Below the pieces are notes generated by a model. It worked only from the letters and a program-made list of their open reading frames with translations. It made no database searches and was not told where the DNA came from. The position numbers and the translations under genes were made by a program. A stretch of DNA of 55,176 nucleotides, counting the filler, from Streblomastix strix (lineage: Eukaryota): assembly GCA_008636045.1 (NCBI GenBank). It is 3 parts of 3 records of this genome, joined end to end, with 100 filler letters (N's around TTAATTAATTAA, not from the genome) between each part and the next. Parts side by side here need not be neighbours in the genome. Positions count along the whole stretch, not along the records: positions 36,861 to 55,176 come from SNRW01000618.1; 2 more parts are not named here. One strand, 5' to 3'. Positions within the stretch are counted from its first letter, which is position 1; every line of letters starts with the position of its first letter. This document shows positions 1 through 55,176 of this stretch, in pieces.

Positions 1-10898
<10,898 letters not shown>

Positions 10899-15106: not shown

Positions 15107-16060
<954 letters not shown>

Positions 16061-27858: not shown

Positions 27859-28016
27859 TATGAATTTTATTCTAATAAACATTCATGATAATATTTAATA
27901 AAATAATATATAACAATACTATATGAGTTAGATTTTTGCACTCATTGTTTTATTAATACTGAAAAAATATAATCTAAAAGAAAAAATTGAAATGATTTTT
28001 GAAATGATAGATAATA

Positions 28017-31000
28017 TCAGTTATCAGAATCTTCTTATTGATTCTCTTCATCATTATTTGATTAATTATCATCATTTTCTGACTCTTCTTATTCTTATTC
28101 TTTTATATCCATTTCTTATTCACCTTCTGATTCATCCATATCTTATTCTTATTCTGATTCATCCATATCTTATTCTTACTCTTACTCTTATTCCTTCTGC
28201 ATCTAATTCACACAATCCCAGACTCTTCCACAAGCAGCTTTCAGTTTCCCAATGACCTGAATATTCTTCATCCCCAATTCCTCTCCAACTCGATACAGTG
28301 GTCCATATTCCATCTAAGCGGATTGAATTCCTTCCTTTTCTTGATCATCTCCATTCAAACCACTTCCACTACCTTTCTACAAACGAACTACTCCAATATG
28401 CTTCAGAAATCCTAATGCACTGTTTGAGTTACTCAATAGTTTCTATTAGTTTTATCTTGCATCACCAGCTCTTAAACCAGCTTCTAATAGTAGTTGTGCT
28501 TCAGGATGTGTGAGACCACATGGAACACGACCTGTGAGGAGAAGAAGCGCAACATTAGGAAAAAGATCAAACACAAACAGAAGCCCCAAATTACCTGCTG
28601 CAAATCTCTGTAAGCGATGCAAGTCATATGGTGAAAACATTTCAGTTGGTGAATAATATTGATAATAATTATATTATTATTAATCATCATCATCTTATTA
28701 TTATTATTATTAATCTATTTATATACTAATATTATTATCAGGTTAAGGAATTGGTGGAGCAGGACTTCCTAAGAATCTTCTTCCATCTGGATCAATCAGT
28801 TGTATGGCTAATTATGAGGAGATTGGAATGTGCGCATATGGAATCAATGAAAGAAGACGGTGGCAGAAACGAGAGAAACTTCTTTCAATCCAGGAATTGC
28901 GCTGTGATATGGTGAGTTTAGTTTAGAGTGAATTATTGATAGGTTATTATTATTCAGATTATAATTCAACTTCTTCTTCATCGTTTTCATCATCTTCTTC
29001 TTCAGTTCGAATTGGTTAGGCAAAACAACATATCCATCTTTCATATTCTGTTGTACAAACATAGCTTTTAATGTTTCTATTTTCAATTCCATTTAATTAT
29101 TTATTTTCTATTATTTTCTATTCATCATCTTCTTCAATTCTTCTTCTTTTCTTTCCTTTTGATTTTATTATTTAATTCTCTTCTTTTATTCCCATTTTCT
29201 CCTTAATTAGCTTTTCTGCTTCTTATTCATCAGAAAATTCTTATTCTTATTATTTTCTTTTCAATTTACCATTATCAGATGTTTAATTGAATTAATTATT
29301 CTATAAATTATCATTGGTTAAATTATTAGATGTTTATCCATGAAGCAAAACAGGAGTCATTTTGCATTTGAGCCAAAAGTTGCAGATCGATTCGGCATCA
29401 TCGTATTCAAATACAACAGAAGTAAATATGAAATCAGCATTTGGAGGAACAATACGAGATATTGGTGATAAGAATGGAGCTTTTGATGGCAAATATGAAA
29501 TTAATCTTTTCTTATTATTAAGATTCTCTATTTAATTTTAACTATCATTTGAATCAACATTTAATAATTCGCCTCTGAAGAACTGTCTCAATTGTTTCAC
29601 AGCTTCCAAACCATATCCAACTCCGCGGACTTCAGGATGTGTGCAGATCTTCTAAATATGAACCATTCTTTGGTTCTGAAGTTGTTCATGTTCGCTTAAT
29701 AATATTGGGAGTTTGGATTTGAATGATAATTGACGATTGTTTGATGACTAATATGAAATGTTTTGTATTTATTATTATTTATTATTTGATTAGTTTGAAT
29801 TACTGATTGTTTCAACTGATACGCGAATAACACACATGATTTCTCCAGTTCCAAGTAATTATTCTGTATTATTTTCATCTTTATCTTCATCTTCTTATTC
29901 ATTTTAATTTTCATTTTCATTATTTTATTCTTATTGATTAATTTATTTCTTCTTTTGTGTTTGAAATCTTTCTCCGATCAAAGCAAAGTAAAGATCTTCA
30001 TTTTCATTAGTTTCTATATTTTAATCATTTATATTAATTGATGAATCATTTTCTTTCTTTTTTTATTAAATATTTTATTTTTTCCCCAAAATTTCTTATA
30101 TTTCATTTCCTGATAAATTTCTCTCATATCCACGATATATTGCAAAGAATCGTGCAAGAAATAATTCTTCTTATTCTGATTATGATCTGATATTATTCAA
30201 TTTATATTCATTATCATCATCATTTGCTTATATTTATTTATTTTTCTTATTATTAATATTTTCATTCAATTCAACTTATCCTGTTTTCTGAAGTGAATTA
30301 TTTGATTCGTTCTGTTTAAATGTGTGAAATAGAGGAAGTTTCATAATATGCATAGCTGACGGATTCAATAAATGAAGTGTGCACAATTCTGGAGGTGGAC
30401 AGGCTAAACATCTGTGCGTTTACATCATCAATTAAAGTGTTTAATGTGAAAATTATGATTATTATTATGATTATTATAAGTTCGTTTTATTATTTATCTT
30501 TTCATTGTTCAATTAATAATCAGTCAAAGGCGACCACGTAAAGAAGAATAATTGAGCCAAAATCGAACAAATTGGATCAGATGGATTCATTTATGGTGGT
30601 TTTTATAGCACAGCTGTTATAACTCCACTTCCTTTGCCATTCAAACTAAACAATCCATTTTCATCTGAATTACTCAAGAAACTCGAATTCTTCTTATATT
30701 TCCTACTCTCATTATTATATCCATTATTTCTCCCATATTTAATACCTTATCTCTTCATACCAAACTCGATCGAATTTCCGCTCAGTTCAGAAACAATCTA
30801 TTCAGCAACATGAAGACAGCATCCTTCATTCCCACCAAGATCCAATGGAATAATCGATAACTTTGCTTATTGTGATGTCTGTATGGCTTAATTACGGTAT
30901 TAACTTCTTATTAATAAGTCATCACTGCAGAAAATAACCAAATCGCAGACATGAGCCAATTATAGTTCAGATGGAAGTAAGAATTGAACCGTTTGTTTGT

Positions 31001-32444
31001 GTGAGTGGAAAATGTCTATTCTGAGAACTCTGGGATTGTTTATTATTGGATGTTTAATTAGTTGGGCTATTTTTTATTCGGGTTCTCTTTTTCTTTTAAC
31101 TTTTGTATTTGAAATATCAGTTATTTAATCATTATTAATATCATTACTTGTTTATTATTCATTTTCATCATATTATTATTATTATTATTATTTCTGCATA
31201 ATAATCGTATAATCCCTTCCTTCAATATAACCAAGTGCATCAAACCCCTTTACACATCCAGCGAAAATCGGTTCAGCTTCTTCAGCTGATTATCCAACAA
31301 TACAGATTGATGGGAGACCCAATGCAACAGCTGATGCAACTGAGATGCCAAAAATAAATGATCTGTATTATTAAGCTGAACAATTAGATGGAGCTGATAC
31401 AACTATTATTTGAGAAGTGGATGATGTGTTTTGTTTGGGTAAATGTATAGTTGCGAGAGATGAAGTATTCACTGGTGTTGGAAGCGAAGATCTTTGGGTC
31501 AATGCATCAAATATCAGAAGAAATGCTTTTGTTTGATCTAATGCAAAATCAGGTGTTATTGATGAATTGAAATGTTTGTTGTTTATTATATTATCTTCTT
31601 AATCCAAAATATTTCTTTCTTTAGATTCAATAATTCCTTCACAGAGTAATTTCAAGAGAGGTTCAATAATATCAACCCCAGAGAATGAATCAATAATTTT
31701 ATGAAGCTCATCTAATATGCGTTATTGTGATGAATTTATATTTTGTGATTTTTGAATTGGTAATTCGGATTAATTTGAAAATGTTTGATTTGATTAATTT
31801 TATTCAGATTTTGAGTTTGATTAGTAAATTAATGAATTTGGAGAAGATAAAAGAAGATGGAGCATTCTTGAAACATCTGGGGTAAGATGGTTTGATTTAA
31901 AATCAATGTTAATAATGATGATTGAAAATTAATCAGATTATACAATTGTTCTGATAAGTAGATCTGCATTTACATTGAAAATTCCCTAAATGAATGATAA
32001 TAATAAATAGAAGTTTAAATAAAATAAATATTAAATTTATACAGAAATTACGCAAATATTGTCTGGTTTAGAATTTAAATATTCATTATAGTAGTTTTCA
32101 AAGTTGATTAATCGAGCATGAAACTTTTTCTTTATTCGTTCTTCATGGGTCTAAGATCTGAAATATATAAATAAAGCAATATTTTATAATTATTAATAAA
32201 ATTTACTATACTGGGACAAGTTTGAGCGCAAAATAGAAACTCTGGGTGCTATCTTCTTCTCTTTGAAAAACGTAGAAGCTTGTGAAATCTAAATTAATAG
32301 ATAAAATATAAAATCAATAATCATATTGAGCAAATAAAAGTTAAAATAAACAATTTTGACTATGCTGCCATGATCTAGACTTCCAACAACGCATTTGTAT
32401 CCTTAACTCCAGCATCGTTAGAAAAGAGGATTGAGATCAGTCAT
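28017..32444 (-). CDS. Highly divergent NAT10/Kre33-like RNA cytidine acetyltransferase homolog with degenerate helicase ATP motifs
   Basis: Collinear NAT10-like blocks: GISVASAVALG...KGFDALGYIEGRDYTII, RIDIFHSHKQTVQFLLP, CPPPELCTLHLLN, ELFLARFFAIY, KICTHPEVRGVGYGLEAVKQLRQFFRG, NFWLKCKMTPVLL and FSPYDLHRLQRFA. Three 5' introns, long Q/N insertions and an acidic tail ending at TGA 28017-28019. Confidence 0.82.
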
Positions 32445-32637
32445 TTCTAATTAAAATTTAACAAATAAATATTAGTGTTCGAAGAAAAATATATTTTAAA
32501 ATAATTAAATGATCTTTCTGCTGCGAAATATTTCACTTTAAAAATAATGAAATATTTCGTTATATTGAATAATAATGATTTAAAATATTATATAATCTGA
32601 TAATAAAAATACATATAAATTATTTAAAATAATTATT

Positions 32638-33841
32638 ATGAAGTTCAAAAATCCAGGAAGCCTTGGAAACAAGCTGGAAAAATTAAAAATGTATATAACA
32701 GGACTTTTATAATAATTCACAGAGTATAAAAGATTCTACAGAATTTTTTATTTTTAATTAATAAATATATAGATTGCATTTTTATGGTCAATTTCGTATT
32801 CGGATATTTAAACAACATTGAACATGTATTTCGCAATGATAATAATTGTATTGAGCTCTTGTAGTACAGCATAAATTTTCAGATAAAGTTACATAATTGG
32901 TGCAGATGGATGATGGTACATATTTTACAAGTGTAATTAATGTTACATCTGTGCATCTTACAATTCATGGTAATTATTAAACCGATATTTAAAGATATTA
33001 AACTTCTACTCGACCTTTATTTTTTGGTAATTCTGCACGTATTTCTCTTCGCAAGCTGAGATTTATGTCAGACGATTATCTTGTTACAAGAATTGATAAA
33101 GATTCTTAGTTGATTTTCAAAGATAACACGGTTGTTGGCACAACAAGTGGTGGGGAATTGCTTTGAAATTGATGGTGGAAAACTTTTTCTCATCAAATTA
33201 AAACTTGATTTTGTGAATATTAAACAATAGAAAGTCTCAAATCTTGTAAAATTTAGTGAACATGGTGGATATTTAGAAGTACGTAAGACATACCTTGAGG
33301 GTATAACAGTAGGAGGAGGTAAACCACTTTTTGGAGATGAAAGAGCAACTGGTATATCAATTAATAACTGCTAATTCAAACATGTACAAATTGATAAATC
33401 TGAAGTTGCTAATAAAGCAGATACTATTATTGGATCTACAAATGTGAATATAACCAGTTGCGCATTCATTGATGTTGATAATGCACTTATAGGAGGCATT
33501 GCCAATGGTCTAAACCAGAACGGGAAATTATCTGTAATAGGATCAACATTCAAAAACTGTATTAACACACAATATGCAATAAATACAACAAGATAATATT
33601 CAGATCGAGATAATATCATAACAGGAGATGCTGAATTTGATGATACCAATTGGAAAGATTGAAGTACGTTAAATGCAGTACAAGTTATTCACAGAATGCA
33701 GAAGGTGGTTCAATTTATATCGAAGGTGGGATAAACATTGCGAAAGAATTAAAAATCATTTCATCAACAGCAGAAATTGTACATACATCAATTTCAGACT
33801 GTTGTTTTGTTGAAGATGAAAATATTTGCTACTTTTATTGA
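32638..33841 (+). pseudogene. Fragmented beta-helix (pectin-lyase-fold/Pmp-like) repeat surface-protein gene
   Basis: Repeating I.NC.F / S.F.NC motifs (ISINNCQF, ITSCAF, GSTFKNC) and GGSIYI; multiple frameshifts and TGAs. Confidence 0.5.
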
Positions 33842-33849
33842 ATTCTAGT

Positions 33850-35694
33850 AGTTTTCGGCATTGATTAATGTTGTTTAGCCATCCTTCTATCACTCCATCA
33901 TTCTCTTCTAGGTTTCCACCACCAGTTGCAAGGGCTGATGAAAGAAAAGAAATATATCTTTCTTATATAAGTTGTTAATATAATTATAAGCTTTGACTAT
34001 CTTGAATTGCTCCAAAACATCTTAAGCTTGATTTCTTTAGATCTATTTATTCTTATTCTAAGTTAATATTTTGTTATTAATTTTATATTTGTTTATACAT
34101 GGCTATGATAGCTGTGATGAAGTTTAATTATTTTAATGTATTTTGTCCATAGAAGAAATATTTCCATAATAAAGCAGAGAGAAGTTCAAGGGATGACGAA
34201 ACAAGCTTTGGAGATTAATTAATGATTAATTAATGGTTTAATATTATATTATTGTGAAGTAAAAGTGATTACTTATATTCATTTATTAAAGATGTGATAT
34301 GTTGGATGATTTTATTATCTTTAATTATTTATAGATATTTACTTGGATAACAGTTATTACTAATAATAACATCTCTCAGTCTTTCAAATACATTCTAGAG
34401 TAATTTTAAAATAGTAGATGAAGGTTAAATTGCAATCCTTAATGGGCAATTGAGTTCAGGACGGCAATTGATATGTAGAAGAGGAGTTATGTTTTTCATT
34501 ATAAGGTCTTATATTGAAGTTGGATAATCATTAGGATTAAAGTTTCGAAATTATTTTATTATTTTAATTAATTTTATTCCTTATTTTATTTCTTTTTCTA
34601 ATATATAATTATTTTATTGATCTTTCAAGTCTTTGAGTGAATTCAAGAAATATTTTAAATTTTTATCCAACACCTAAATATATGGTTTAAGATTATGCTT
34701 ATTATAATTATCATTAAAATCATCACAAATAACATTGATATTGGTTAATTACACAAGTGAATCTGAATATTGTTATTTATTATTCATTTCTTCATCAACT
34801 TTTAATTAATAGAAGGCTTTCATTTTATTCATAAATCCTGATTTGATCATGTTTAGACGAAAAGTTTTTTATTATTAACTTTAGTTTATATTGTCAATTA
34901 AATGTTCAATTATATTTATCAAGATCTTTTAAATATTTTAATTGAAGAATGCAATTCGATCAATTATGAATAAAAGTAATTCTTCATCAAATATCTCAGT
35001 AATTTCATTAATATCTTTCTTCTATAGATCAATGAAAATTTATTATAAATTATTTCCTTTTACTTTATCTGATATTAATTTAGATTATATTATTTGAGTT
35101 AATTTATTTTTGGTTTCATTTCTTTCGGGAGAATATTCATTGTGATTAGGAATAATACTTGCTTTGTCTCGTATATTTGAATTATCTTAATTCGGAACCC
35201 TACTAGAAAATTAGTTTTGATTGACTTGCTTCAAATGAAATTCTATTTAAATAAAAATAATAAATAAATAAATTATTTACAATTGAAATATTATTAAAAT
35301 ATTAAATTATTAATTTAAAATAAAATGAGAATATCACACTGTTTATTATATCATTTTCAATTCTTTTATCCTTAATCAATTATTTTTCTTTTATTTCTTC
35401 CTTTATCTAAATTCGAATTTCGGATCCATCCAAAATAAATTTATCATATTTCTTCATTACTTTCAATGCTGTTTCGTAGTTCACCATCATTGCATATCCA
35501 CGCCCAACTGAAACTCCTCCAATGGACTCTATTCTCACATAACCTCTAAAAAATATTAACAGAAGTATTTAATTTTTAGAATAAATTAAAAATCATGAGT
35601 CATACACAGCTCCAACTGTCTCAAAAAGAAGCCCAATCGTCTTCGCAGTAGTCACTTTATTCAGATTGGTGATGATTAAAGTTGCAGATGTCAT
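33850..35694 (-). CDS. N-terminal RRM domain followed by a long helical/low-complexity region; possibly frameshifted near 34190, 3' end uncertain
   Basis: MTSATLIITNLNKVTTAKTIGLLFETVG (RNP2-like) and VGRGYAMM...YDKFILDGSEIRIQ (RNP1-like); introns at ~35547-35606 and ~35245-35340. Confidence 0.6.
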
Positions 35695-36760
35695 CTATTA
35701 TCTAATATATGCAAAATAAAAATAATTTTATAAAACAAGAAATTTTCGGGAATTTAACTTTAATTCAATTATGAGTTTATTGATGAAATTTGTGATTAAA
35801 AATGAAAGTTTTATAATATATTATGATATTACATTTTATTAAACAGGAGTGATAGTTAAACGTTCAGTAGCAAATAATGCAAAAATTCTTGTAATAATAA
35901 TAAAGGGACATGAAAATTTAAGCGGTATGCTTCGAAATTCCATGTAAATATTTCATTATTTTCATCCATTTATACTTTTTTTGCAAATTAACTATTAATT
36001 TTTCTCATTTTATATATGTGACAAAATTTTAAAATTTTAATATATTTTGAAACATTCATAATTTTGTTAATTTTAATGAATATTTTAATGAATTTTTATT
36101 TGTAGATTGTAAATTGTCGTTATTTTATTTTAATTGCTAATAATAGAAATATATAAAAAACTGGAGTTGTCGATATTTTTGTAAATTAATATTAAGTAAA
36201 TCTTCATTATTCAGTTTATTACCATCTTTCTTTCACTTGTTCTCTGCAGTTATCTTCATAAGTAGCCGTATAGCTATAAAAACGAAAGGGTATAATATAA
36301 GATCGTCTTCATTAACAAAATTCTTATCTACTCTGTACTCAGTTTTTGTCAATGATGCTTATTTCTTTTTCTTTTTTTCTTCATCTGTTCAACTCACTAT
36401 GTCATCTTTTACTCCTCAATCAGCTAACTTTGCTCTAACTGACTTGAATGCCAACTTTCTGTACTCAATGCAGACAAGTTCAATCATTTTCCATTTGTTT
36501 TGTTTTTTTGACAGAGATATTATTATGAAAATGAAATAAAGTATTTAATAAAAAGTACATGATTGAAAATATAAAATTGAATGCATAAATTAAATAAATA
36601 AAGTAATAAAACCCAATTAATGGGTTTCATTTAACCCAGTCGCCTTTATAAGGCTCCATTCTTTATTTAGAATATATTAATTGGTGAAATGTGTTGGATC
36701 GCACAAAATTTTTTGCCATAACAAGGGGACCCGATGGACGAAGGTGACTTAATTCAACAT

Positions 36761-36860
36761 NNNNNNNNNNNNNNNNNNNNNNNNNNNNNNNNNNNNNNNN
36801 NNNNTTAATTAATTAANNNNNNNNNNNNNNNNNNNNNNNNNNNNNNNNNNNNNNNNNNNN
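36761..36860. other. Artificial assembly linker/gap (N44-TTAATTAATTAA-N44)
   Basis: Same 100-nt construct as 18340-18439. Confidence 0.97.
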
Positions 36861-36861
36861 T

Positions 36862-36946
36862 ATGACTGATGCAAAGAAGTAACTGTTAAATGTTAGTCGA
36901 ACACCAGTAGATGATATCATTATCTAAAACTATAAGAAATTTAACT
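36862..36946 (+). pseudogene. Inverted C-terminal fragment of the viral helicase
   Basis: MTDAKKQLLNVSRTPVDDIIIQNYKKFN on the + strand, abutting the minus-strand helicase body. Confidence 0.65.
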
Positions 36947-38450
36947 TTCTCCATTAAGAATTGATCTACATTTATAAACAACATATCTTCTATCATTTGC
37001 TTCAATTTTTACTGGAAAAATGTTATTTGAAACGAATATAAAATTAACTACATTCTCAGCATCACGATGAGGTTAATTTTTTTCAATTATTTTAATCGTA
37101 CAATCAGTTTCGATTTATTTTAAACGTTCATTATTTGCTCGTTTATCCTCTCCAAAATTTGTCATTTTATTGGCAATAATCAATATTTTTCCTTCAACTA
37201 TTCGATTAAAATATCTTGTTAATTCTTTTATATTTGTACAATTTTTACAGCTGTAGCCTACCATGAGCTCGCATAAAACATCTGCAAATCGGTTCTTACC
37301 AATGCCTTAATTTCCTTTCAAAATAAATGTTGACTCGATCTTTTTTTTGCATTTTGAAGTACATAAGCTATCCAATTAATTAAAAAGTTATATAATTTTT
37401 CATCGCCTGAACAAAAAACGTTTAAAACAAGGTCTATATATTATTTTATTATATTTTTATCATATTTTTCAAGTAGCTCATATTTTCATCCTTAAAATAG
37501 TGAGAAAATTTACTGCTCTTTTTCTTTAAATTTTATACATTATATGCAAAATAATGCTATAAATTTTTCGAATATATGCCATACAATTATTTATTTTTAC
37601 AATCTTTCCATAACATCATTGTTTCTAAATCATCAGATATACCCGCTTTTGTTTTATTATCTAATATATGTCTTTTTGTATAAACTTCATATGCTTTGAC
37701 AATTAAATCCATTCTCGACTCCACAAATCGCATAACTTTTGTCAAATCTGATATAACTTCTTCATCTTTTGTATATTTCTTTTTTCTTATATCAACAAAA
37801 TTAATATCATCATAAAAATCAATATCAAATATTTATATTTCTGTAATATTTTTATTTTAATTGTTTGATTCTCTGAGCTCTGGATGTATTACATTTTCAT
37901 AGTATTATTTTTTTATGACATTTAATTATTTTTTATAATTTTAATCTGAATTTTTTTTATCATTAAATACTATCTTTTTCTTCTCCCATTATTCTATTGC
38001 ATTAATTGTTAAGTTTTAGCTTTCTTTAATATCTTCATAAGCTTAATCAATCTCTTCTTCATTAAGCCCAAAATTAATTAGTCCATTATGTCTTGAAAAC
38101 AAAGTTAATAAGCTTATTTCATTTTCTATTTTTTAAGCATCGTTATGAATCTCTAATCCTTCTATACATTGAATCAATAGCTCTGCATAATTTCGTGATA
38201 ATTAAATGGTTCCTTCTTCAGATATATAAGGTATTTCTTCATCAACTTATTACTTACAGGTCGATGCCTAATAAATCCAATATACACTCAAGAAGAACCA
38301 TAAATGATTTAGATTTATAATTATTTACATCAATATATTTTTATATTAAACTTTCACTATTTATTTATTCTCTAATTGTTGAACCAACTTATACTATCCA
38401 ATATTATTTATTATTAATGCAACAAAACAAATCAATATCGAAATTTTCAT
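36947..38450 (-). pseudogene. SF3/D5-like (DUF5906-type) primase-helicase, frameshifted
   Basis: LYNFLINWIAYVLQ...FILKGNQGIGKNRFADVLCEL (Walker A, ~37292-37315), ILIIANK (Walker B region, E to K), NFIFVSNN (motif C) and KIEANDRRYVV (Arg finger); several frameshifts and an in-frame TGA at 37486-37488. Confidence 0.85.
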
Positions 38451-39211
38451 TTTTATAAATTTTAATTTATGAATTATTTTAATATTATAACCGTATAAAT
38501 TACAATATAAATCTAGTCCTCCATGAGCTGTTTAAATAAATCCAATTTATTCAATTATTTAGCTAAGTCGCTTAATTGCTTAATCTCTTTTTTATTTTTT
38601 TTATTCTTCATTTAATGTTTTATTTATATCAATATCTATAATTGCTAACTCTTAACATTTTGCAATATCTATAGCCTATCCTGATTTTTATCCAATATTT
38701 TTATTTAATTGAAATTTATCATAAATATATATATCAGTTGTTATATCTCTAATTCTATTACTTAACGTTTTAGTCTAAATTAAATCAAATTGTTTATATA
38801 ATTGATTATTTTTTTAACTGTTTTATTATGATTTCAAAGCATCAATTTCTAACAAATTTGAACTAAATGAATAGTTAGTAGTTGGATTCTTATTACCTGC
38901 CATTTCTTACATCTAAAAAAAAATTGGATTTAAATAAAATAAACTCATTTATTTTTAAAATAAGTTTATTTATTTAATTATTTAATTTTGTATTTTACAC
39001 AGATTTAATTATACTAGATATTGGCACATTGGCATATTGGCAGCTATTTTTAAGAATAATTGAAAATATCCTCAGGGTATGGGCACCTTGATCACTTTAT
39101 TGTCATTCACTATTCATATCAATTCTTCGTGCCAAAATCATGAACTTTTGATTGACATGAATTAACGGTTTTATTTTACGAGAATAATTAATTATTTTTT
39201 TTATGATTAAA

Positions 39212-41130
39212 ATGAAAGGCCCTGCAATTCCAGAAGTAGAACCATCATTCGATAAGGAAATTGATCCATTTAAAATCTATTTCAGGTTTAAGTTATTATA
39301 TTTGAACGCCAATTTTGTCAACTAGGCATAGAAGTTCAATATTTGAAGAAACTTTAACTCCAGACTCATCAATTTGTCGTTGGCTGTTGGATATCATAAG
39401 TGAAGATGAACATGAGGTTAAAATATCAGCACATTTCGTATTATCTGAAAATTAATTGATTCAGGTAGTTCTTTACATACTTAATAACCCTGAAAATTAA
39501 GTTTAATTGAGTATAAAGGATGAAGGATGTCGTGATAGGCTTTGCAGCGATTTGAGTTAAACATTAAATGAGATATTGAATGGGAATGTTAACATATTTA
39601 CTCTAGACGTCAAAAAAGTAAATATATTAAGAGATAGATATAAAATTTGTTTATAAAATATAAGAAAAATAACAAATATTTTAGATTTAGGTGAGATTAC
39701 AAGTAAAAATATTAGTGCAGTATCTAAAGGATTAATGACAGTTATAAATAAAATTTGATGCTGTTAATAAATTATATTTATTTTTATAAAATGAATGGAG
39801 ATTTACATATGCTTGATGTTGTTTTAAATCATGATTAAGTACTTTATGGTTCTAGTAGATATAAAACTATTGATTTAATTAATTATTTATTTTTATTGAA
39901 TATAAACGTCGAACGTTTATTTCGATTAAAGATTGTTTGACGCAGCCTGATTATCCGACTTACCAGAATTATATGCATATCTCAAAGAACGTTATCTTAA
40001 GCCAATTGGTGAGCTACAACAACCTGTTCCTATTGGAGAACAAACTCTGCAATAGCAGGAGAAAAATAATGATTATATTATCTATGCATCAAATGAAGTG
40101 TTCGAACTACCAGTGTCGAATACAATAACGAAACTGAATTAAAATTCGTAATTAAGGCGATAAAGTTTCTTAGAATCCAGTGATTCAGACCTATAATTAA
40201 TCGTTTATGGCGATTGAACTACGCAAAAGGTTTCATATTCAACAACATGTCTATTTCCAAGTGGCTGTTAATAGAATGAATATTTATTTAAAAGATATTC
40301 AGTTGAAGCAAGACAAAAATTCGGTGATTAAGTGATTACATTAGTTGGAACCGACGCATCTAATACATACAATATATTTTGCTATATTGACTAAAACGGA
40401 CCGTATATTATCAGCTCTCAATAACTACCTTCAAATACTGCACTTATGCTTAATATAACTTGTTATAAATAATAAGAATCTTCAAAAAATAAATTATAAT
40501 ACCAATAAGGATGGAAAAAATGACATTATGGACACGTGGAATGTTAATGGAATGGTTAATTTGAAGCATAATCGTATGTCCAAGAAACAGTGAAAAAATA
40601 AACATATTTAATCGATGTGGGAGTGTAAGGATTAAATAAAACTAATTATTTGAACAGTGAAATAAAACTAGTGGATGAATTAGCGATATATAAAGCAGAT
40701 AGAGCAACATATTTTATTAAAGACGAGCCATTTATCACATACAATTTTGGAACAAAATAGGAACAATTAGGCGCTAAATATGAATCTTAATAAACAGTAC
40801 ATAAATTATTCTCGACATTCAGCAAAAAACTCTATTACAAAATACGAAATATATGCCTATTCATGTTAAATAATAAACGTTTTCTGCAATGTGTTTGCTC
40901 AAAGATACGTATGATAAATCGTCAGCTGTTTAAGTGGCAGTTAGTGGATAATTAAATATGTATGATTGCGAATTTTAATGAACGTATGTGTTTGATAATT
41001 ACACCAATGAATCCGCATCTAATAAAGCATTGCTTCAAGATGTAGAATCACACAACGATGAAGTAATAATGAAACATGAAAAATAATTAAGCTAATCACA
41101 ACAAACACAATATACGATAACAAATGTATT
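39212..41130 (+). pseudogene. Cluster of degenerate intronless ORFs of unknown function within the viral element
   Basis: Coding-like stretches starting MKGPAIPEVEPSFDKEIDPF (39212) and MNGDLHMLDVVL (39791), broken by TGAs and frameshifts and separated by short T-rich spacers. Confidence 0.4.
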
Positions 41131-41148
41131 CAATTAATTTATAATTAA

Positions 41149-43047
41149 TGATTTTTTCCTTCATCAGCATGTAAAACATTCTATATCGTTGATGATGGCA
41201 CTTGCAGAGTTTTCGTATTCAACTTATACTTCGAATCAAAAGGTTTGCAAAGGAGAATATAAGATGTAGGTCGTATTCCTGATTCTATATTACCTGGAGA
41301 TGGTAAAAGTTTAGGCTTCCCTGCGGCTGTATATAGAACAAAGGGCGGAAGATAGAATAATTTATAATGAAAGACACACATTTACAACAAGCAGGAACTA
41401 TTGAAGAAACATTGTTAGGTAATGCGGTTGTTCCATTCACTAGTGATGGAGAACATTATTATTCTATCCAGGAAATTAAACAAGAATTAGAAATGCCAGC
41501 GTTGTTTGATAAGGAAATAATTATAAGTTTATCAGACACTAACCATGACATCACAAAGATATAAAATTCGTTCTTGTCGGTAGTTCTAACAGCTAATATC
41601 TAACTTGATGATAAATTTGATAAAATTAAAGAATCATATAAAAACGGATTGGTTCTATTTATAGGTCTCAAATCATGTTCAAATCTTATTAGAAAATACA
41701 CCATCTATCATAGAGGTAAAACAATTGATGGAAGTCAATAGAATGACGCAACAACCGAATCATGTATTTATATTATAATTAAGCCAAAAAGTCAGAAAAA
41801 TAATAGAAAACATATTCATTACTTGTATGAGAATATTAATAAATTTGATACTTCAGCATGTAGCTCATATATAAGTATGCGAGAGATTGAAGAACTAACA
41901 AGAAATAAAACATCTGTTCCATATACAAATCCAATTCATTTCAGAGTTAGTATTCCTCTTGAGGACCTCCTGATATTTTCTGCATTCACTGATTATCCTA
42001 ATGGATTGTTTGTTGATTTAAAATAAAATTCAAAATTAATCCTCATGCATTTGTTTTCTGTCAGGTGAATCCAATTATTTCAATAGCTAAATATGATATA
42101 ATGAATAAAGATGAGTTATTGAGTTGTAATCAATAGAAGTTAATGGATATTGATTTGATGTTCAGAAATTGGAGCTTGACATTCTAATATACAAAATAAT
42201 TTACATAATTGGGATGCACTGCTGACTTGATTACAGGACTACATTCGGAACCACTAACTGAATCAAGATTGAAGGACTTAGTATGCAACATCAAACCCGT
42301 TACCATGAGCATAAAAAATTATGTCATTACCGAAGTAACGGCTAATATGACAAAATATAATAATACTGACGCATGTCTTAATCGAGTCCATTAATTCAAC
42401 TGCTAATGTTCATTTGTTGTCCTAGCCCAAAGAATAGAAATATTGCTATTTCCAACATCTGCTACATTAACTGGAATATGAACATCATAAAATACTCAAC
42501 TGTCTCACGTAATCGACTTCTGTGTTCTATTTCCGAAAGATGTTAGAGCAACAACTTGCTTTGAAAATCCTTGCTACTAGGACATGCAAGTAACCACCTG
42601 CGGCCGCAACTTTCCAGATATGCCTATGAATACGCTTGACCAATAATTCTTCTAACTACAACTCAATGCTTCAAATCTTGACCTGTTATTCGATGCCTCT
42701 GATGAATTCGAGGATGCTTTGACAGCACCAAGAAATACAGCTACTAAAAGATAAAATCCTCACTCTGATTTTACAAGCTTTTTGATAACATTTTAAAATG
42801 ATAAAAACAGCAATGGAGCATTAACTTTAAATACAAAAGACACTCAGAATTAAAACACTTCCGTCGAACTCAGAGAGGCTCAAATATAACAAGGAGCAAC
42901 AGATTCATACTATAATGTTGATACCAGTGGAAAGAGACAACCACCTCAAATTCTATGCACGGTTCATGATACATTTTGGTTGTTCTTACCCGCTGAGGGT
43001 GGGAGCTGTTTATATGATTAAACCATTTATTTGATGAAATTATTTGA
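41149..43047 (+). pseudogene. Putative double-jelly-roll major capsid protein (about 600 aa), inactivated
   Basis: Joining ORFs 41367, 41823 and 42209 through TAA/TAG=Gln gives beta-rich blocks in the order expected for DJR capsids: NLIRKYTIYHRGKTID, FRVSIPLEDLLIF...DLK/IKFKINP, LSHVIDFCVLFP and MQVTTCGRNFP. Frameshifts at ~41360 and ~42023; TGA at 42479-42481. Confidence 0.62.
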
Positions 43048-43904
43048 TCACTTAGTTCTTGTAACAATTGAACCATTATTTGAAAACATTTTTATTTTTT
43101 TATTTCTATATAAAACGAACATCTAAATATTAAAACAGATAATTAAATATCTCTTTAGTTATTTTTTTTTATTTTATTTTATAATATATGGCTTCAAATA
43201 TGACATCAGCATAAAACTTAAAATATTACACTTTAACATAAAATGATGGAGTTGTAATCGGAGAAAACGGATAAAATGGAGTTGGTTTTGCATTACTTTA
43301 TGCGTTTGTAAATTCTGATAATTAAAGAAAAATAATATTCTGCTAATGTAATTGTTCAAACTAAGGCATTAATGAGAACATAAGCGTTCATAGTTCGATG
43401 GTTCAAGAAGAATAATATTTCGATTAATTTGTTGGCTATTGCAATGAATAACGAGTTTATAAGCCTTTCATCTAATACTCGCACAACAGATATTTATATA
43501 TATGGTTTCGTTGGAACATAGAGTTATTGGACAAAAATTTTTTACAATTAAAATTTTTTCTCAAATTGATGCTGGAATATTGAAAAGTCTAGGAACTATT
43601 TTTTGTTGGTAAGCTGACGCGTATATTTTTGTTTAAATCTTCAGGACGTGCAAGGAGGAGAAAATGCCCCCTAGAATGTTGATGTGAAAAAGTACTAGCT
43701 GGTTTTCTAGCCAGCGCATTGACGTGGATATTTTTGAACGACTAACTTTCTGGCTCAAAAATGAGCCAGCACATTCGTCGCACCCAAAAGAGCAAGACAA
43801 TTAAAACTAATTGATGTTCAAATCAAGGTTCGGCAGAAATACAGCCAACGAAAAATAATTATTTTATTTTTTATTTAAATCTAACTCTTTTTTTTACATA
43901 TTTA

Positions 43905-44759
43905 ATGATACAAGTTAAAGCTACTGCTAAGACTTCAAATATCGATATTCGTTTCGTTGAAGGTTCATATTTTGGCTTAAAATTACTTATTAAATCAAAT
44001 GATAATTATTTCAATGAAACGAAATTATGTGAAAAATATGATTAACAATTCAGATAATTATAGAGACTGACGTAATGGAAGGAATATTTGAAAGCAGAAA
44101 TGAAGGAATTTGACTCCGTGTGAATTCTCTCGGCCTAGTGAGTGTATGCAATTGATATAGGATTTGATAACGAATATAAAGATTATTATTTTCATCAAAT
44201 TTTAATTAATTATAAAGCAATGTGGATATTACAATAATATGCAATATATATTCGTAAAATAATGGATGCAATTAATAAACGTAAATAAGTCACATATTAA
44301 GAAGCGTGCCAATAAGATGATTAAATATCCATGGCATATATTGCATACGAACAAGTTTAGTTAATAATTGAATAATTAAAAGTAGTAATAAATTATAAAG
44401 ATAGTGAAATAAATCAATTGAAACCAAGAGCAGTACCATAAGGCAAAGAAGCTGCTTATGTTCTTACAGTTTAATATATAGAGGTTGATGATAAAAATAA
44501 AACAATATTAAATGTTCTTTGAAGAAATAAGAAATGAATTAGTCACAAATTGATGTAAAAATTAAAAGACGTGTTATTATACAATGTTTAGGAATGTATT
44601 GCTATGACCAAAAATGAAGCTATCAAAGAATATTTAAATAAAAATATAGAAGGTATTTAAATTAAAGGAACCATATATACATTCAATGATAGTCTTACTG
44701 ATGATGTCATAAACAAAATAAAGGAATACATGATTACATAACTTGAACAGCAATTATGA
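43905..44759 (+). pseudogene. KilA-N domain protein with a DUF3627-like C-terminal region
   Basis: EGSYFGLKLLIKSNDNYFNETKLCEKY...WKEYL, YYFHQILINYKAMWILQQYAIYIRKIMDAIN and LKPRAVPQGKEAAYVL; four internal TGA stops. Confidence 0.8.
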
Positions 44760-45628
44760 ACAATAATTTAATTTATTTTTGCAGGAATAAAATTGGTAGA
44801 ATCTTGTTCGACAACAGAAAAAATAATAAATTCTCAAATTAATTTTTTTCAAAATTATAAATAGAAACGGATGAATAAGAAGAAATACCACTCTAGGAGG
44901 AGGTCGAAGGTTCGATTAACGGACATAACTATTTTGAGAACTTAACCGATTTCAAATAATTTATTTCCCAAAATTTATAATAATTATCTAAACTATCAAC
45001 GTAAAAACTAAATAAATTATATAAATTTTAAAAAATATAGAAATCAAAAAGTGTGGTTTTGACTTCACTACAAGTTTTGGTTTCACCAACGATCCTATAA
45101 CTAAATATTTTTAGCATTTTATTTTTTTAATTGAAATTCAATTAATTTTTGCTAAGTATTAAAATTATATGTGATTAACAAATAAATGATTTACATAATA
45201 TTATAAATTAAATTAAATCTGCAACATAACATAATATAACGAAATTCAACAATCAATTAAAACGCGCCATAATACTGTGATTCATTAACTGCTCGTTATT
45301 TAAATTTCACTTATTCTATTCTTCATGCATTAAATTGAATTCATTTCAATTAAATGAAACTGCAATAGAATGATTTTTACAAATGGGTGAGGTCTAATTT
45401 AATAAAATAGATAGTTTTTTGAACATCTTCCGAAGTTCTTGTTTATATACTACTTATATCTACTATAATAAATATTAATTAAAATAATTATTATACTTTA
45501 AATGTAATTTTTGAATTATTTGTTTTAGATCACACAATTTTACTAATTTTCTTAAATATTTACAATTTGTACATTATTCCAAGTTCAATTTTAGTTTTAT
45601 TTTTAACCACAAATTCAGAATTAACAAT

Positions 45629-46193
45629 ATGGCTTGGGTATTTTCACCAGTATGACGTCTATTTTCTAATATTATAGGTTAATAAAATCATAATTAATTG
45701 TCTTCTTTCTTTTAGAATGCAATTAATCAGACTTGGAAAGAGACAGTATTATCTTTATATTTTATTTTGATTATAATATTTCTTACAAAATCGGATAGGT
45801 TTGGAAAGAAGACTCTTAATCATAAAAGAATAAAGCAAAATTAAAAGATCTTTATGTGTGCAACTATTCATTTATTTTCGTTCAAATTTTTATTTTGAAT
45901 ATGAAATGCAGGATAGGAATGAAAGAGAGGATGCCGATTTCATGGAGACTGTGAGAGAGAGGATGAGTTCTCCTCCAAAATCATTCACATATTCGCAATT
46001 CAGAGGAGGAAGAACTCGTTTGTACGGTGTAGTCCCTGGGTATACTACAACAAATATGGGTTTGCTTTCATTGTGTTATTTAGCAATTGACTTAATAATT
46101 AACCGCATATTAACCCATTCAGAATATGGAGCTTTGGATCCTGAAGTTCCACAGGGGAAAACATATAATCACAAATTTGTTCCATATCGCTGA
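45629..46193 (+). CDS. Small multi-exon hypothetical protein
   Basis: Short exons flanked by GT/AG, including DRNEREDADFMETVRERMSSPPKSFTYSQF...TTTNM and EYGALDPEVPQGKTYNHKFVPYR*; 5' exon structure uncertain. Confidence 0.5.
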
Positions 46194-46367
46194 GGATGAA
46201 CAATTGTCGGAGTTCTGAAATACTCATTCAAAACAAATTCATGATCATCTTCTATTGATAAATAGTCTTTTATTGCTATAAACAGTCTTATATTGTAAGT
46301 CTATACTATTAATAATAATTCATAAACTAATAAATATAAATAATTTAAAAGATGTAAAATATTTATG

Positions 46368-47347
46368 TCACTATTCTTATTCTGCTTCACCTTCAGGATT
46401 AAAGACTAAACCCTTTATTTAATATTCATAGTAAATATAATTGATAAGTGATAATATAGTAGAGTAATGTAATACCTGCAATTCTGGTGTGCTTGACAGA
46501 GGAAAATAAGCCTGATCAATCTTGAATCCTTTTTACTTCCTCTCGTCCCTTGTTTCCCACTCAGTCTCGTGGTCCCCACCCATTCTCTCGCAATTTGGGC
46601 AGTTGTAATGAGCTTACCATTGGCCACATCCACATTTCTTGCAGAACTTGGATACACCAGGTGAATGCTCTTCATGAGTGTGACCACATTTGCATTTGGC
46701 TCTCCATTTAGTTACATTGAAGTCTTTGCGTCTTGGTAACCACCAATCTCCAACCTCTGAATAATATCAATATAATTAATTATTATCTAATCTGAGTAAC
46801 AATTATTACCTTCTGGTCTCATTGGAACAAACTCGAATCTTTTGCACTCACATGTGTGACATTTAGTAGATGCACCCTTCCTTGCACATGGATTCTTGTC
46901 ATGATCAGCAAAGAAGTGTCCACAGAAACATTTGCATTTGGGTCCAATTCTACTACAGAAGTCCAGAGCATGTGGATTCTCTTTAGTTGGTGCTTCTACA
47001 GGTCGAGTTTAACATCTCCATACTCCATATATTCCTGATTCTAATGACCATTCAGCTGCATCTTATTCTCTATCCATTAGGAACCTAGCTCCAGGGGCTG
47101 GTCCAAACTATCTCACTGCATCCTCTATAGTAATACTCCCTGGTGCCTATAAATTCGACATTATAAAGGCTTATCCTTTTGCTGTTGGTTTCCTTCGACT
47201 CTCCATTACAGTAATTTATGGCCCTCTCACTCCTACCTTTGCACGGCCTTTGGGGGCAGCAACAGCTCCTCGTTATGGAAGAGCAAGTTCCTACTCGGTA
47301 CCAAATTGTTAAGCATTTGAGCGTGGTTTGGGAAAAGGTTTATCCAT
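46368..47347 (-). CDS. FAM221: FAM221-family (DUF4475) Cys/His-rich protein, 3 exons
   Basis: CSRIGPKCKCFCGHFFADH...CECKRFEFVPMRPEEVGDWWLPRRKDFNVTKWRAKCKCGHTHEEH...CPNCE...DHETEWETRDERK; TGA at 46368-46370. Confidence 0.85.
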
Positions 47348-47874
47348 TAAGTTCTATAAGATAAAAAATGATAATTATTGTGTATTATTTGATTATTTTT
47401 TTAATTAAATTGGTTTAAATTAAAATAATATCGTCAAATTAGCTCAATTTCAAAATAAAAACATTTTGGGTATGTGTTATTTTAATAATTTCAATATATT
47501 ATAAATGAGTCATTTTATGAGATTAAAATAATGTATTGATTATTATAAGTTGTAGAAAGATTAGAAAAAATTTATTTTAATTAAAATGATTATTATGATT
47601 TAATTTATGTGATGTGGCTCGGACATAATAACTCGATCAATCAAAATTTTTTGTAAATTTCTAATTCGGTTAATATTTGTGTATAATTTGAGTTGGAAGA
47701 TATATACAATACTGCTGTTTCATACTTAATACTGATCTGCTGTTCGAATAAATAGAGAGTGATAAGAAAATCACAGAACAACTAATAAAATTAATAAAAT
47801 AAAAACAGATGGCAATTCTTTAAACACAATATTTTAGAATATGTTAATATATTTTTATTAATCAATTCATAAAC

Positions 47875-49630
47875 TCATTCGTTTTCATCTTCGGCAAAAA
47901 CAGTTCGGATAGTTTTCTTTGGTTCTTCATCCATCCGAGCTCTTTTCCTTGACCTTCCTTCCTCACTATCATCTCTATGATCGCGATTACCTCTGCCACC
48001 TCTTCCCCTTCCCCTACCACGCCCACGACCCCTGCCCCTCCCTCGGCTATTTGATCTTCCTTTTCCTTTATCACCAGAATCCAAAGATTCCAATTTCTTT
48101 TCACTCACAACCTTCCAATGAGCTTTTTCTTCTTCACCTTAATATAAATAATAGAAATTATTAAATTAATTTAAAAAAATAAAATATTTATATATTATTT
48201 TCATTGTTAGTAATAGATAATTATAATATACCACTAATAGCCTCTACTATAGGAAGAATTCCTTCAAATAAGTTTTCAGCACTTTTCTCCTTATCAGAAA
48301 TAGATGTCAAAGCTCTATCACATCCTTCTTTAGTTTTATATCTCACAATACTTAATAAGATACATTAATATAAGTAAATGAATCAATATATAAACTATAT
48401 ATTATAATACCCACTCTATTTCTCTGTTTCATTGTCAAAATCAACTCTGGCTGTTTCTCCAAAATGAGCAAAATAATCTCTGAGCTGAAGAACCAAAGGT
48501 CTTCCACGATTGTTTGGATCTTAATTTGGAAGACCACTGAAGCGCAACAGACAACCATGAGGATAATCTTAATGAATATAATAGGAATAATAAATATGAA
48601 TTAATGAATATATATAAATATAAATAATACTGGTTACAAGATCTTCAAATTCTTTTCTCCTCTTATTATCTTCTTCTTCCTTCACTTTTGATTCAACTTT
48701 ATCTTATTCATCTTCTTCCTCTATTTCATCTCTCTTTCTTTTTTTAGGTTTTCCTCTTTTCTTACTTTCTTCTTCATCATATTAATCTCTATTTAATAAT
48801 AAATAATGAATAATAAATTATGATATTATTATTAATATCATACACAGTCAATATAATGAGTTGAACTCCTTTCAATTCTTCTCCTTCTTTTGCTTTATTC
48901 AAAGTATATTTAGGCTTTTCTGGTGCAGAGATGATTTTATCTGCACTTTCTTTGTTTTTGAAAACAATAAATGCGCTCCCCTTAATATATAACATATATA
49001 TATGTACAATCCAAGAAGTAAAATAATTAATTCAAACTGTAAAAGCCTTAGAATGAATATCTCTTCTCATTCTAACTGCACCAACTTCACCAAATTAATT
49101 GAAGAATGTTTCTACTTCTTCCATTGTGGCTTCTTTCGGTATTTATTTCTATTCATTATAGATATGATATAAAGAATAATATAAAGAATAATGATATATT
49201 ATTATTCAGTGTCATACAACAAATATTGTTCTTGTATCAACTTCATTCTCATCTGGTGCAGTGTCTATACGCTTAATTTTCTTGCCATCTTCAGAAACAG
49301 TCAATAATTCTGAAGTATTAAGAGCATTCACTACAACTGATGCATCTTTGGTCAATGTTGCTAACTTCTTAAATGTGAGAAGGACACTTATATCAACCCC
49401 TTTATTTAATAAAAAAATGATAGAAGTTAATTCAATAACAAAAACATACATCCTTCTTATGTCTTCTTTATTTCATTTTTCAAGAACTTATCTCGGGGCA
49501 AATTATCATTGGAAAAGTAGAATTCTAATTTTGAAATAGGTTGAAAAAATTAGAAATAAAAATGACATGTCGAACCGATTTGTTTTTTGATTGCTGCCAA
49601 TGTTTCTTCACTTGTAATTTGAGAAGTCAT
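47875..49630 (-). CDS. La autoantigen-like RNA-binding protein (La motif, RRM, second RRM-like region, RG repeats)
   Basis: IKKQIEFYFSNDNLPRDKFL, VDISVLLTFKKL...LLTVSEDGKKIKR, RNP1 FTGSAFIVF and C-terminal RGRGRGRGRGRGRGGRG; many short introns. Confidence 0.92.
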
Positions 49631-50928
49631 AGCTTAAAAATATGTAAAAATAAATATATTAAAATGCTAAAAATTATTTTTCATTGAGTAATGCACCATT
49701 TATCAATTTAGATATTTAAACGGTGTCAAATTGTTAGTTTTGATATTTGAATAATATAAATTTCATCTTAAAAGCAGTATATAAACTTTTTTATTAAAAT
49801 AATTATTGCAAAAAATGATTCAAGTGTTTGATGTTGGTGTAGTGGTGGATTTTTTAATTTTATTTGTTTGTGAGGTCAAAATTGAATTAATTACAATTTA
49901 TAGCTCTTAAAATTGCATGAAAAGCCATATTTTAATTAATAATAAGTTCATATAATAAAAATATAACCAAGTATTGCAATATTTACGTAATGTTAATTTC
50001 TTTTAATTTTTACTTTCTTTGTCAAAAGCTTTTTAATCTTGTTATTAATGTTCAATATTTACATATATAAATTATTTAAGACCAGTGAAATACATTCAAT
50101 AAAAAATAACAATGGCTGTCAACAGATACATTTTCTATTCAATGTTAATTCTTCAATCGTTCTCCAAATGGATGAGTAGCCAAACTGTGCAAGAATAAAT
50201 AGGAAGAAATGAAAGTAGATCAAATCTATATTCTAATAAACGAGTAAAACAACTATGTTAATCTCATTAAAAAGCATAAGAATCGCTTTTTAATGTATTC
50301 TAAATTTAATATTCTTTAGACATTGATTAAATGATGGAAATAATACTAAATATAATATCCACGATTTGTTTCGAGAATAGAAACAATGAATACGAACTCT
50401 GGAGATGTTTTGCCACCTGAAAAAAATCAGGGTATGGGTCCGGCTATAAACTTTTTGGCTCGTTTTCCTCCCTGCGCATCTGTTATTTGCATTGTTATTA
50501 TACCTATATTTTATATATATTGATATTATCAATTAATTTTAATGAGAACATATCAAAAATACTCAAAGAATACAGATGAAAAACACATATTTCTCTTTAA
50601 TTCTCATAATCATTTTTTCGCCTAACCATCTATTAATTCAAATAAATAATTATAATTTTATGAATTATTATGATAATTATTCATCCTTTGCAACACAATT
50701 CAAATTCATTATAAAGTAATTCCAGCGATTTACTTTGAATCCATCAAATATTAATAGCTATGGCTTGAATCAACACTTTTAAATATTTCTATAAAAAATA
50801 TGCATAAAATATATTTACATAATTCTTATAATTATATTTTTTCAACAATTTAATAAAGTCTAAAGTTTTATTTATTCATATTTTTTTTATCATGATATTT
50901 TTCTATTTTTTAGATCAAAACAAATCAC

Positions 50929-51488
50929 ATGGATTTTCAAGATGGATAGTTTGAAACAATTTAATATTTTATATTATTATTTTATAATTATTATTTTTGA
51001 AATAATTTAGATATGGAGAGAACAGATCGAGTTCATTTTGGCACACAAATCTCTGTGCTTGCAAATCGAATTGTGAAAAAGTTGAATGTATAAAAATTCC
51101 CTATTAAAATTTTTAAATTACATTTTTTGTTTTAATAAATTGTCAGGGAGTGGAATCTGCTGTCCATGGGTTTAAACGATGAGAAATATGACTCGAGTAT
51201 TTCCAAAAGAGTACAGCCCTGGTATAGGATTAGGCTGCCAAAGCCTATGTTGCTTCAACTGCTTTGAATATTCTGTAAGAAAACAGTTGTCTTTTGCTAA
51301 TGGACTTGAATTCAGCAAGGGAAGTGCCTGCTGCATTTCATGTTTCTGCCACCCTTGTGTAGCTTGGTAAGGTGTATAATATTATTTTTATTAATATTTA
51401 TTATTTATATTATTGACTGTCAGATGCATATGAAATTAATGTACGAGAAGAGTTGAAAAAAACAACAACGTTTATGGAAAGTGTATGA
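50929..51488 (+). CDS. PLAC8-family Cys-rich protein, multi-exon; start uncertain
   Basis: WHTNLCAC...GICCPWVQ...CCFNC...VRKQL...CCISCFCHPCVAWQDAYEI; the conserved Q is encoded by TAA; TGA at 51486-51488. Confidence 0.82.
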
Positions 51489-51735
51489 TCCTAGAGCAAA
51501 AAACATTCATTGAATATGATTGATAAACAAGATCCACTTCATTATAAATTTTAACACATCACATACAAGTAATCAAAGGTTATATTTCTACTTATTGTTG
51601 ATCTATTATTTTAGTGTATTTGTGAAGGATAAATAAAATATATTAAAAATAGGCTATTCATTTAAAAATATTTGAAATTTAACACAGATATGAGAAAATA
51701 ATAAAGTTAATGATATCATATACAAAACAATTATA

Positions 51736-52710
51736 TCAATTACAAAGTACGATAAGTCCAAAATAACTTCCAATTAGCCTCATTTTCATGTCATATCTCG
51801 CATTTATATCTCCATCTGTTTTAGCAGCTGTCTAACTACCCCTAGCATCAATTCTTGATCTATTCTTAATCATACTATCAAATATTGGTGATATGTGAAA
51901 TGGGGACTGTTATATTCCTTTTATAATCTCAGTGAATGAATAGTCCTCAATCATCTGCATGTATCTGGCACTGCTCTATCCACCTCCTGGCTAACTACTG
52001 TCATCATTACTCGATGTTTACAAGAATCTAAGAGCTTATTCTAATTCAGATTCACTTGATTATTGACTTTATTCTGGTGGAGATGAATCTGAGCTCTTTA
52101 ATAGGGATTATTATTTAGGAGGTGATAATAATGGAGATGAAGATTATTAACTCATTGGAGATGAAGAACCCATTGGAGATGTTGATCTTCCTAACCCTGA
52201 TCCTCCTTTAGATGAACGAGGTAATTAATTTGAATGAGATGGAGAAGATCCAGGTTGAATAAGAGATAATGAAGATGATCTCAAATGATCGAGATTGTGT
52301 TTGAATCTTGGTGAGAGAGATGCTTATAGAATAATCATATTGGATCCACTGAATGGGAAATATTCTCCTGATGCAAATAACTTCCCAAATTCTAAATTAT
52401 CATATTTAGTTAATATATGCATAATAAGTAATATATATATAAATATATAAATATATATATAACACACCAGTAGCAATGACAGTAGACTTCCAAGCAAGAG
52501 CAGCATCCTCAAATCTCTCTCCACCAGCTATTATCTATCTACTTACTGGACATGGATGCCATAGAATTGGAGACAATGGGAGACTGGAATTTGATTTCTT
52601 CACTAAAGTTGATGATGAAGAAGAAAGAAGAGTGTTTATTGGCTCTTCAACTTCTGATGACTCTCTTTTAATTCCTGTTTATGTTTAGTCATTGAAACCC
52701 CTTTAAAGTG

Positions 52711-52795
<85 letters not shown>

Positions 52796-54771: not shown

Positions 54772-54895
54772 AACACAATTATATATTCAAAACATTATTC
54801 TTATTTTTATTAAAAAAAATTATAAATATAAAAAATTTAATAAAATTTATAATTGTTGCATTAGTCGAATATTTTTGTAAAAAATCCCATAAACA

Positions 54896-55176
54896 ATGAA
54901 ACGTGCAGACACACCACATCCAGGCCGATAGAAGGACGAACAGATACGTAAGAACATTAAATTCTTTCTTCTAAGTTCAGAAATGAGATCAGTAACTGAT
55001 ACCTACTCCCGCATCATCGAAACATTGTACGAATTCCCTGGAAGAGTACGAATTATTTCTGAGGTTCTTGGAGTCTCTACATAACAAGTTTATTCTGCAG
55101 CTCGTGCACATTGCTTTGGACTCAAATGGATCACAAAGGGCTAGGTTGGACATGCGTTGCTTCTTTCAGAATCTGG
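54896..55176 (+). CDS. 3'-partial ORF with an HTH-like segment, possibly a pogo-type transposase N-terminus
   Basis: MKRADTPHPGRQKDEQIRKNI...VRIISEVLGVSTQQVYSAARAH...GQVGHALLLSES; open to the window end; no catalytic domain visible. Confidence 0.4.

Follow-up and report, generated by a model that had tools for sequence, protein, structure and literature searches.

The DNA analysed here, called the window, is a stretch of 55,176 nucleotides from Streblomastix strix, an oxymonad protist of the termite gut in which endogenous viruses use the host genetic code (Bellas et al. 2023, PMC10120064). Positions 36861-45102, at the left end of the third of its three contigs, contain the decayed right part of an endogenous double-stranded DNA virus, very probably a dead, integrated Polinton-like copy with a double-jelly-roll capsid gene whose fold is predicted from an intact paralog. 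Polinton-like is meant in the broad sense, following the definitions in 10.64898/2026.10.13.758929, PMC6431247 and PMC2836005. The genes of a strict Maverick/Polinton, those encoding a protein-primed DNA polymerase B (pPolB) and a retroviral-like (rve) integrase, would lie off the contig; elements of that kind also have terminal inverted repeats whose ends are of the AGT/ACT type, and a target-site duplication of 6 bp. Among the features of broad-sense Polinton-like viruses, the element displays a double-jelly-roll capsid (via the S. strix protein P0009), a replication gene of its own in the form of a primase fused to a superfamily 3 (SF3) helicase, and an integrated, multi-copy, intronless state, as seen at the right junction. 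The sequence-only reading that preceded this analysis had proposed an integrated dead virus of this kind, and its components, a DUF5906 helicase, a KilA-N protein, a double-jelly-roll capsid in the paralog and a host flank, were all recovered. The analysis shows the lesions, the right junction, the use of the host code, which genes are present and, for the family, how the capsid folds.

The major capsid protein

The capsid gene of the window is a pseudogene that belongs to the Metamonada group. Its lesions are a missing ATG at the homologous start, a frameshift near 42019 and a TGA at 42479-42481. A search with a capsid fragment returned 75 homologs, all 75 of them S. strix proteins (34-84% identity). 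The intact paralog P0009 and the window copy are identical at 403 of 557 positions (72%). In a profile search of a representative library 541 relatives were found at E<=0.001, and the 150 of these that were listed provided the 89 rows of the alignment used for fold prediction. The deeper alignment was required, as an earlier fold based on 33 S. strix sequences only had a predicted local distance difference test (pLDDT) score of 38.6. The fold of P0009 was then predicted with a pLDDT of 92.6 and a predicted template modelling (pTM) score of 0.91. Foldseek matched this model to the capsids of Paramecium bursaria chlorella virus 1 (PBCV-1; E 3.4e-13) and Sputnik (E 4.0e-13), and also to those of iridovirus and mavirus; among the Foldseek matches listed, every one was a double-jelly-roll capsid. 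With VIA-align 344 residues were aligned to the PBCV-1 capsid (Z 20.4, root-mean-square deviation 4.2), and the next matches were iridovirus, faustovirus, African swine fever virus, poxvirus D13, adenovirus hexon and PRD1. Judged by the model, the family is a true double jelly roll, as had been predicted. Sequence searches of Pfam, PHROG and PDB did not recognise the capsid, and scans of IMG/VR and JGI contigs yielded no capsid relatives. The protein earlier placed at 41.1-43.0 kb is indeed the capsid, but that interval spans two genes, with 41131-41313 forming the end of the upstream open reading frame (ORF) and the capsid starting near 41352.

Genetic code 6 applies to the element. TAA or TAG occurs at 19 of the 557 capsid codons, and opposite these codons glutamine is the commonest or joint-commonest residue in five environmental homologs. 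The capsid sequence falls within the S. strix capsid family, which places it in Metamonada capsid cluster 40. The capsid phylogeny suggested by the sequence-only reading was run as a quick tree of 66 rows, comprising the window copy, 19 S. strix and 46 environmental sequences and excluding partial ones. In it the window copy belongs to a clade of 20 rows, all of them from S. strix, with a value of 100 in the Shimodaira-Hasegawa-like approximate likelihood ratio test (SH-aLRT). Its end branch in this tree measures 0.19, compared with 0.03-0.13 in its five nearest rows.

The primase-helicase

The replication gene is a pseudogene in which a primase of the archaeo-eukaryotic primase (AEP) type is fused to an SF3 helicase of the NrS-1 type. 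It lies on the minus strand and the capsid on the plus strand, in agreement with the divergent orientation noted earlier. Its helicase part matches DUF5906 at 36920-37399 on the minus strand (62.5 bits, cut-off 27.6) as well as phage primases and the NrS-1 primase-helicase structure 6k9c (E 8e-27). Two motifs of archaeo-eukaryotic primases, DxD and His, are found in the N-terminal part and are conserved in 44-46 of 48 relatives. This part also weakly matches the pRN1 ORF904 primase (E 0.13), and on this sequence evidence it is likely a primase domain. The window copy carries four frameshifts and one stop and has lost both the conserved His (present in 46/48 relatives) and the Walker B Glu (48/48). 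At about 36943 the gene is interrupted by an inversion with a loss of about 35 codons, which could reflect either a genuine rearrangement or an amplification chimera. An inversion combined with a short loss is typical of amplification chimeras.

Relatives of the primase-helicase (69 matches) were found in S. strix, in Monocercomonoides exilis and on many metagenome contigs. Scans with the helicase gave two distant viral loci and seven metagenome loci, two of which, L003 and L004, are close and short. These two loci (L003:2-2875 and L004:2-2042) use the standard code and carry, one after the other, an A32 ATPase, a helicase and an HNH nuclease. In L003 the helicase relative (49%) has no primase domain and is located just downstream of the Pox_A32 ATPase (27.6 bits, cut-off 22.8). 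Judged from their sequences, the loci are a fragment of a related element from another host.

A second primase-helicase copy, represented by a C-terminal fragment with a TGA, is present on the minus strand at the end of the first contig (17938-18339; profile positions 617-751, 103 bits). It is followed by a decayed small ORF (about 17815-17400), beyond which lies a host gene; the fragment is another, separate element cut by the contig end. The word TTTTATTTAAATC occurs at 43869-43881 (+), 38927-38939 (-) and 17856-17868 (+), that is, about 15-25 nt upstream of the starts of KilA-N and of the primase-helicase and near the second helicase fragment. Given how AT-rich this DNA is, the recurrence of the word may be due to chance.

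The right end and integration into host DNA

The three contigs of the window (1-18339, 18440-36760 and 36861-55176), each about 18.3 kb long, are separated by artificial 100-nt spacers. The spacers, N44-TTAATTAATTAA-N44, are identical at 18340-18439 and 36761-36860 and are not biological. The element is cut at the second spacer. Since the third contig starts at 36861, the element has no left flank, and nothing to the left of this position is a physical neighbour. The conclusion of integration is therefore drawn from the right junction.

The region is present in two DNA runs from termite gut, X1 and X2. In X1 the contig depths add up to 3,600-172,000 over 36861-43605, drop to 366-1,650 at 43606-44315, rise again, and amount to 19-114 past 45381; although these sums are not copy numbers, the step shows where the repeat ends. 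X2 shows the same contrast between element and flank in weaker form. At finer scale the X1 depth falls from 15,320 (45042-45093) to 168 (45094-45145) and then to 17.7. The 52-nt bin in which the repeat depth ends includes ATAACT, which at this one end matches five of six positions of ACTACT, the 3' end motif of Mavericks (PMC8097293). An inverted partner of the right terminus was not found in the window, including beside the second helicase fragment at 17.9-18.3 kb. An exact 679-nt X1 contig spans 45043-45721 and thus leads from the element end into the single-copy flank, and overlapping X1 contigs with at most one difference extend on into FAM221. The right end therefore joins single-copy host DNA without a gap at about 45102. 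Of the integration beside FAM221 and La that had been claimed from the sequence, the right junction stands; the left side is a contig start without flank. The GC content of the element is not distinct from that of the flank (27.2% versus 28.4%), and an Rfam search of 36861-46200 gave no match.

The host genes next to the element contain introns. Between the element end and FAM221 there is a 119-codon frame without TAA or TAG (45834-46193, plus strand) that is convergent with the FAM221 frame, touches it and has no family match. Ordinary host genes in code 6 are located at 2-10895, 14222-14869 and 15317-16459 of the first contig; we take the first to be a very long gene rich in Gln and Asn, the second to be Skp1-like and the third to encode a Rab-like GTPase.

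Further genes and gene order

The features of the element and its flank are compiled in Table 1.

Table 1. Features of the viral copy and of the adjoining host DNA (window coordinates)
Feature	Position	Strand	Evidence and remarks
Later piece of the primase-helicase (profile positions 658-685)	36862-36942	+	Inverted orientation
Primase (AEP-like, likely) fused to SF3/NrS-1-type helicase, pseudogene	36944-38912	-	Pfam, phage primase and NrS-1 matches
ORF-A	39212-39758	+	72/109 identical to S. strix P0074; 1 frameshift
Stub of repeat-rich fibre-like gene, first 30-37 codons	39791-39901	+	Full gene about 950 codons in other copies
ORF of about 470 codons just upstream of the capsid gene	39909-41313	+	2 frameshifts, 4 stops
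Double-jelly-roll major capsid protein, Metamonada group, pseudogene	~41352-43024	+	Homologs; predicted fold of paralog
Small ORF of about 125 codons	43188-43569	+	1 frameshift near 43367; highly repeated in reads
KilA-N protein with C-terminal extension	43905-44759	+	Internal TGA at 44121, 44139, 44520 and 44535
Candidate right terminal repeat, non-coding	44834-45102	.	Highly repeated; putative end ...ATAACT at 45102
Host FAM221 gene, introns, single-copy flank	46169-47443	-	PF14753, 25.7 bits, cut-off 25
Host La-domain/RRM gene, introns	47875-49531 (approximate limits)	-	La E 2e-8 (intron-split); RRM_1 E 8e-7

The body of the fibre-like gene is absent from the window copy; it is matched in nine of about 340 proteins of our set. 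One of its paralogs, P0056, matches the tail fibre family PHROG 10305 (E 5e-4) and phrog_5004 (E 8e-28). The 470-codon ORF is, by its position, probably a structural, spike or minor capsid candidate. As a candidate single-jelly-roll minor capsid protein it had no match in Pfam or PHROG, and Atlas gave leads to phage fibre and receptor-binding proteins, all of them under the threshold of the tool; no internal repeat was detected in it by BLAST. ORF-A likewise had no Pfam or PHROG match. In other copies a small gene of about 80 codons lies between the 470-codon ORF and the capsid; 23 proteins of our set match it, and the window has no match. The KilA-N domain scored 41.3 bits (cut-off 23.8) when TGA was read as X. 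The same neighbours occur in the same order, fused to each other, in other S. strix models: P0074 comprises ORF-A, the fibre, the upstream ORF, the small gene and the capsid. Between the small ORF and KilA-N, 43570-43850 is non-coding, GC-richer and contains short hairpins; in other copies this segment shows back-jumps of about 160 nt (tandem duplication). Folding of 43570-43850 and of the terminal region did not exceed that of shuffled sequences (z 0.09 and -0.38).

Decay of the copy and false gene models

Every gene of the element is broken by frameshifts, stops or deletions, and the copy is dead, as had been stated from its frameshifts and TGA stops, which are real features of the sequence. 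The lesions add up to at least nine frameshifts and ten stops, besides two losses the size of a gene. According to Bellas et al. (2023, PMC10120064), elements of this sort can show false stops when assembled from short reads. This warning favours the view that the lesions and the junction were created when a repeat collapsed during assembly, the true copy being intact or not integrated at this site. The inversion with which the contig begins, resembling an amplification chimera, would also fit. Arguing against this view are the number of lesions and the reads themselves. Two lesions, the KilA-N stops at 44121 and 44139, were checked, and an exact X1 contig with a flank-like depth of 14.3 carries both, whereas related contigs read otherwise; for these two lesions the warning is thereby answered. 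Exact X1 contigs of single-copy depth also span the junction. An artefact of this kind is highly improbable.

The public gene model P0135 (42584-46190, plus strand, 306 amino acids) combines the capsid C-terminus with scraps of two other viral genes, namely pieces of the 43.2-kb ORF and of KilA-N, and with host-side exons at 45.6-46.2 kb. Taken literally, it would describe a domesticated viral cluster that is expressed as a spliced host gene. However, the model is pieced together from very short segments lying in several frames of decayed genes, many other S. strix models being similar chimeras, and the long capsid branch is what decay predicts. Domestication is scarcely credible, and P0135 and its like are likely annotation artefacts. 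The public gene models of S. strix thus include false spliced proteins assembled from dead viral genes.

One element or several, and the intact ancestor

Several observations weigh against the reading as an integrated Polinton-like virus. The folded protein was the paralog and not the broken window copy. A six-frame search of 36861-46200, on a contig cut at the left, did not find pPolB, integrase, A32 ATPase or protease. None of 16 S. strix helicase models was on a contig of the same size as that of any of the 75 capsid models, in a comparison by eye of small samples. With a single end present, neither a pair of terminal repeats nor a target-site duplication can show. X1 is possibly the source sample and hence not independent, and its drop in depth before and at the KilA-N block could mean that KilA-N is a separate insertion.

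The last point leads to the main rival explanation, a composite in which the capsid block, the primase-helicase and the KilA-N block stem from two or three nested or piled elements. It would account for the uneven depth and for the affinities of the helicase, whose identity reaches 66% with environmental proteins but is 47-62% with most S. strix paralogs (76% with one), and Mavericks of Trichomonas are often nested or concatenated (PMC12289875). However, there is neither host-like DNA nor an intron between the genes, the depth exceeds the host level across the whole element, and primase, KilA-N, tail-repeat and capsid genes occur together in the single Trichomonas vaginalis element TvMav3. A composite is quite unlikely, and we retain the single, integrated Polinton-like virus.

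How the intact ancestor replicated, was packaged and integrated is inferred from the families named here, and so are, from the data at the junction and in the ORFs, its exact end and what the ORFs without a family match did. The primase-SF3 helicase encoded by its linear genome would have copied that genome, either unaided or together with a protein-primed polymerase. The major capsid protein would have formed an icosahedral capsid, probably decorated with fibre and spike proteins, into which an A32-type ATPase would have packed the genome, and an integrase would have inserted it into host chromosomes. Polymerase, ATPase and integrase, none of which was seen, would be encoded beyond the contig end. 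After insertion beside FAM221 the copy decayed by mutation.

Comparison with known elements

The Metamonada (MMN) group was defined from the capsid of the T. vaginalis Maverick and includes S. strix (Bellas et al. 2023, PMC10120064). In that study 820 capsid matches were counted in S. strix, all in one cluster (Table S4), and six in M. exilis, and one S. strix capsid, EZS28_010462, was confirmed by its fold against Sputnik 3j26. The MMN elements of S. strix in capsid cluster 40 share with the present one the host, the capsid family, the best structural match (Sputnik 3j26) and code 6, and EZS28_010462 begins like P0010 and P0012 of our set (compared by eye). The capsid family is thus already published at hundreds of copies in S. 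strix, and the window copy, a decayed and truncated member, is a fossil of modest importance from a family already counted in its host. To this extent the lineage is less little characterised than had been supposed; that description still applies insofar as the Metamonada elements are left ungrouped in a 2026 preprint (10.64898/2026.06.19.733378). The main addition is the gene layout, since Bellas et al., in the material available, give a capsid gene count without a S. strix gene map. The literature on Streblomastix or oxymonad Polintons or endogenous viruses yielded only that paper and one review, and no gene map of oxymonad members of the Metamonada group; the supplements of the two bioRxiv preprints and the figshare data of Bellas et al. 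could hold one.

The closest described element is TvMav3, which encodes a capsid (DUF4106), primase, KilA-N, tail-repeat protein, pPolB, integrase and ATPase (Sullivan et al. 2025, PMC12289875). Capsids of S. strix and T. vaginalis are about 32% identical and belong to related clusters (Table S5 of Bellas et al., PMC10120064). Both elements have a primase (in 92% of TvMav3 copies), KilA-N (82%) and a tail-repeat protein (55%), whereas the pPolB (74%), c-integrase (83%) and A32 ATPase (91%) of TvMav3 are not on the present contig (PMC12289875). The gene order also differs, in that the TvMav3 capsid gene adjoins the terminal repeat, and the S. strix capsid, unlike that of TvMav3, has no DUF4106 match in Pfam. 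With the AEP-SF3 Polinton-like viruses of the 2026 preprint the element has in common the primase-SF3 fusion and the double-jelly-roll capsid; pPolB and primase-helicase modules are often swapped (10.64898/2026.06.19.733378). A bolder proposal, which we regard as unlikely, is that the S. strix elements form an oxymonad Polinton-like lineage, recoded to TAA/TAG = Gln, that has two fibre/spike genes and replicates with the primase-SF3 helicase alone (no pPolB). Such a lineage would be of another kind than the Mavericks of Trichomonas, which bear pPolB and share its capsid, and its intact copies would go on producing particles in the gut of the termite. The Metamonada group is among the few Polinton-like groups still unplaced, and the layout described here, the 541 capsid relatives and the helicases in Monocercomonoides and metagenomes are material with which to place it.

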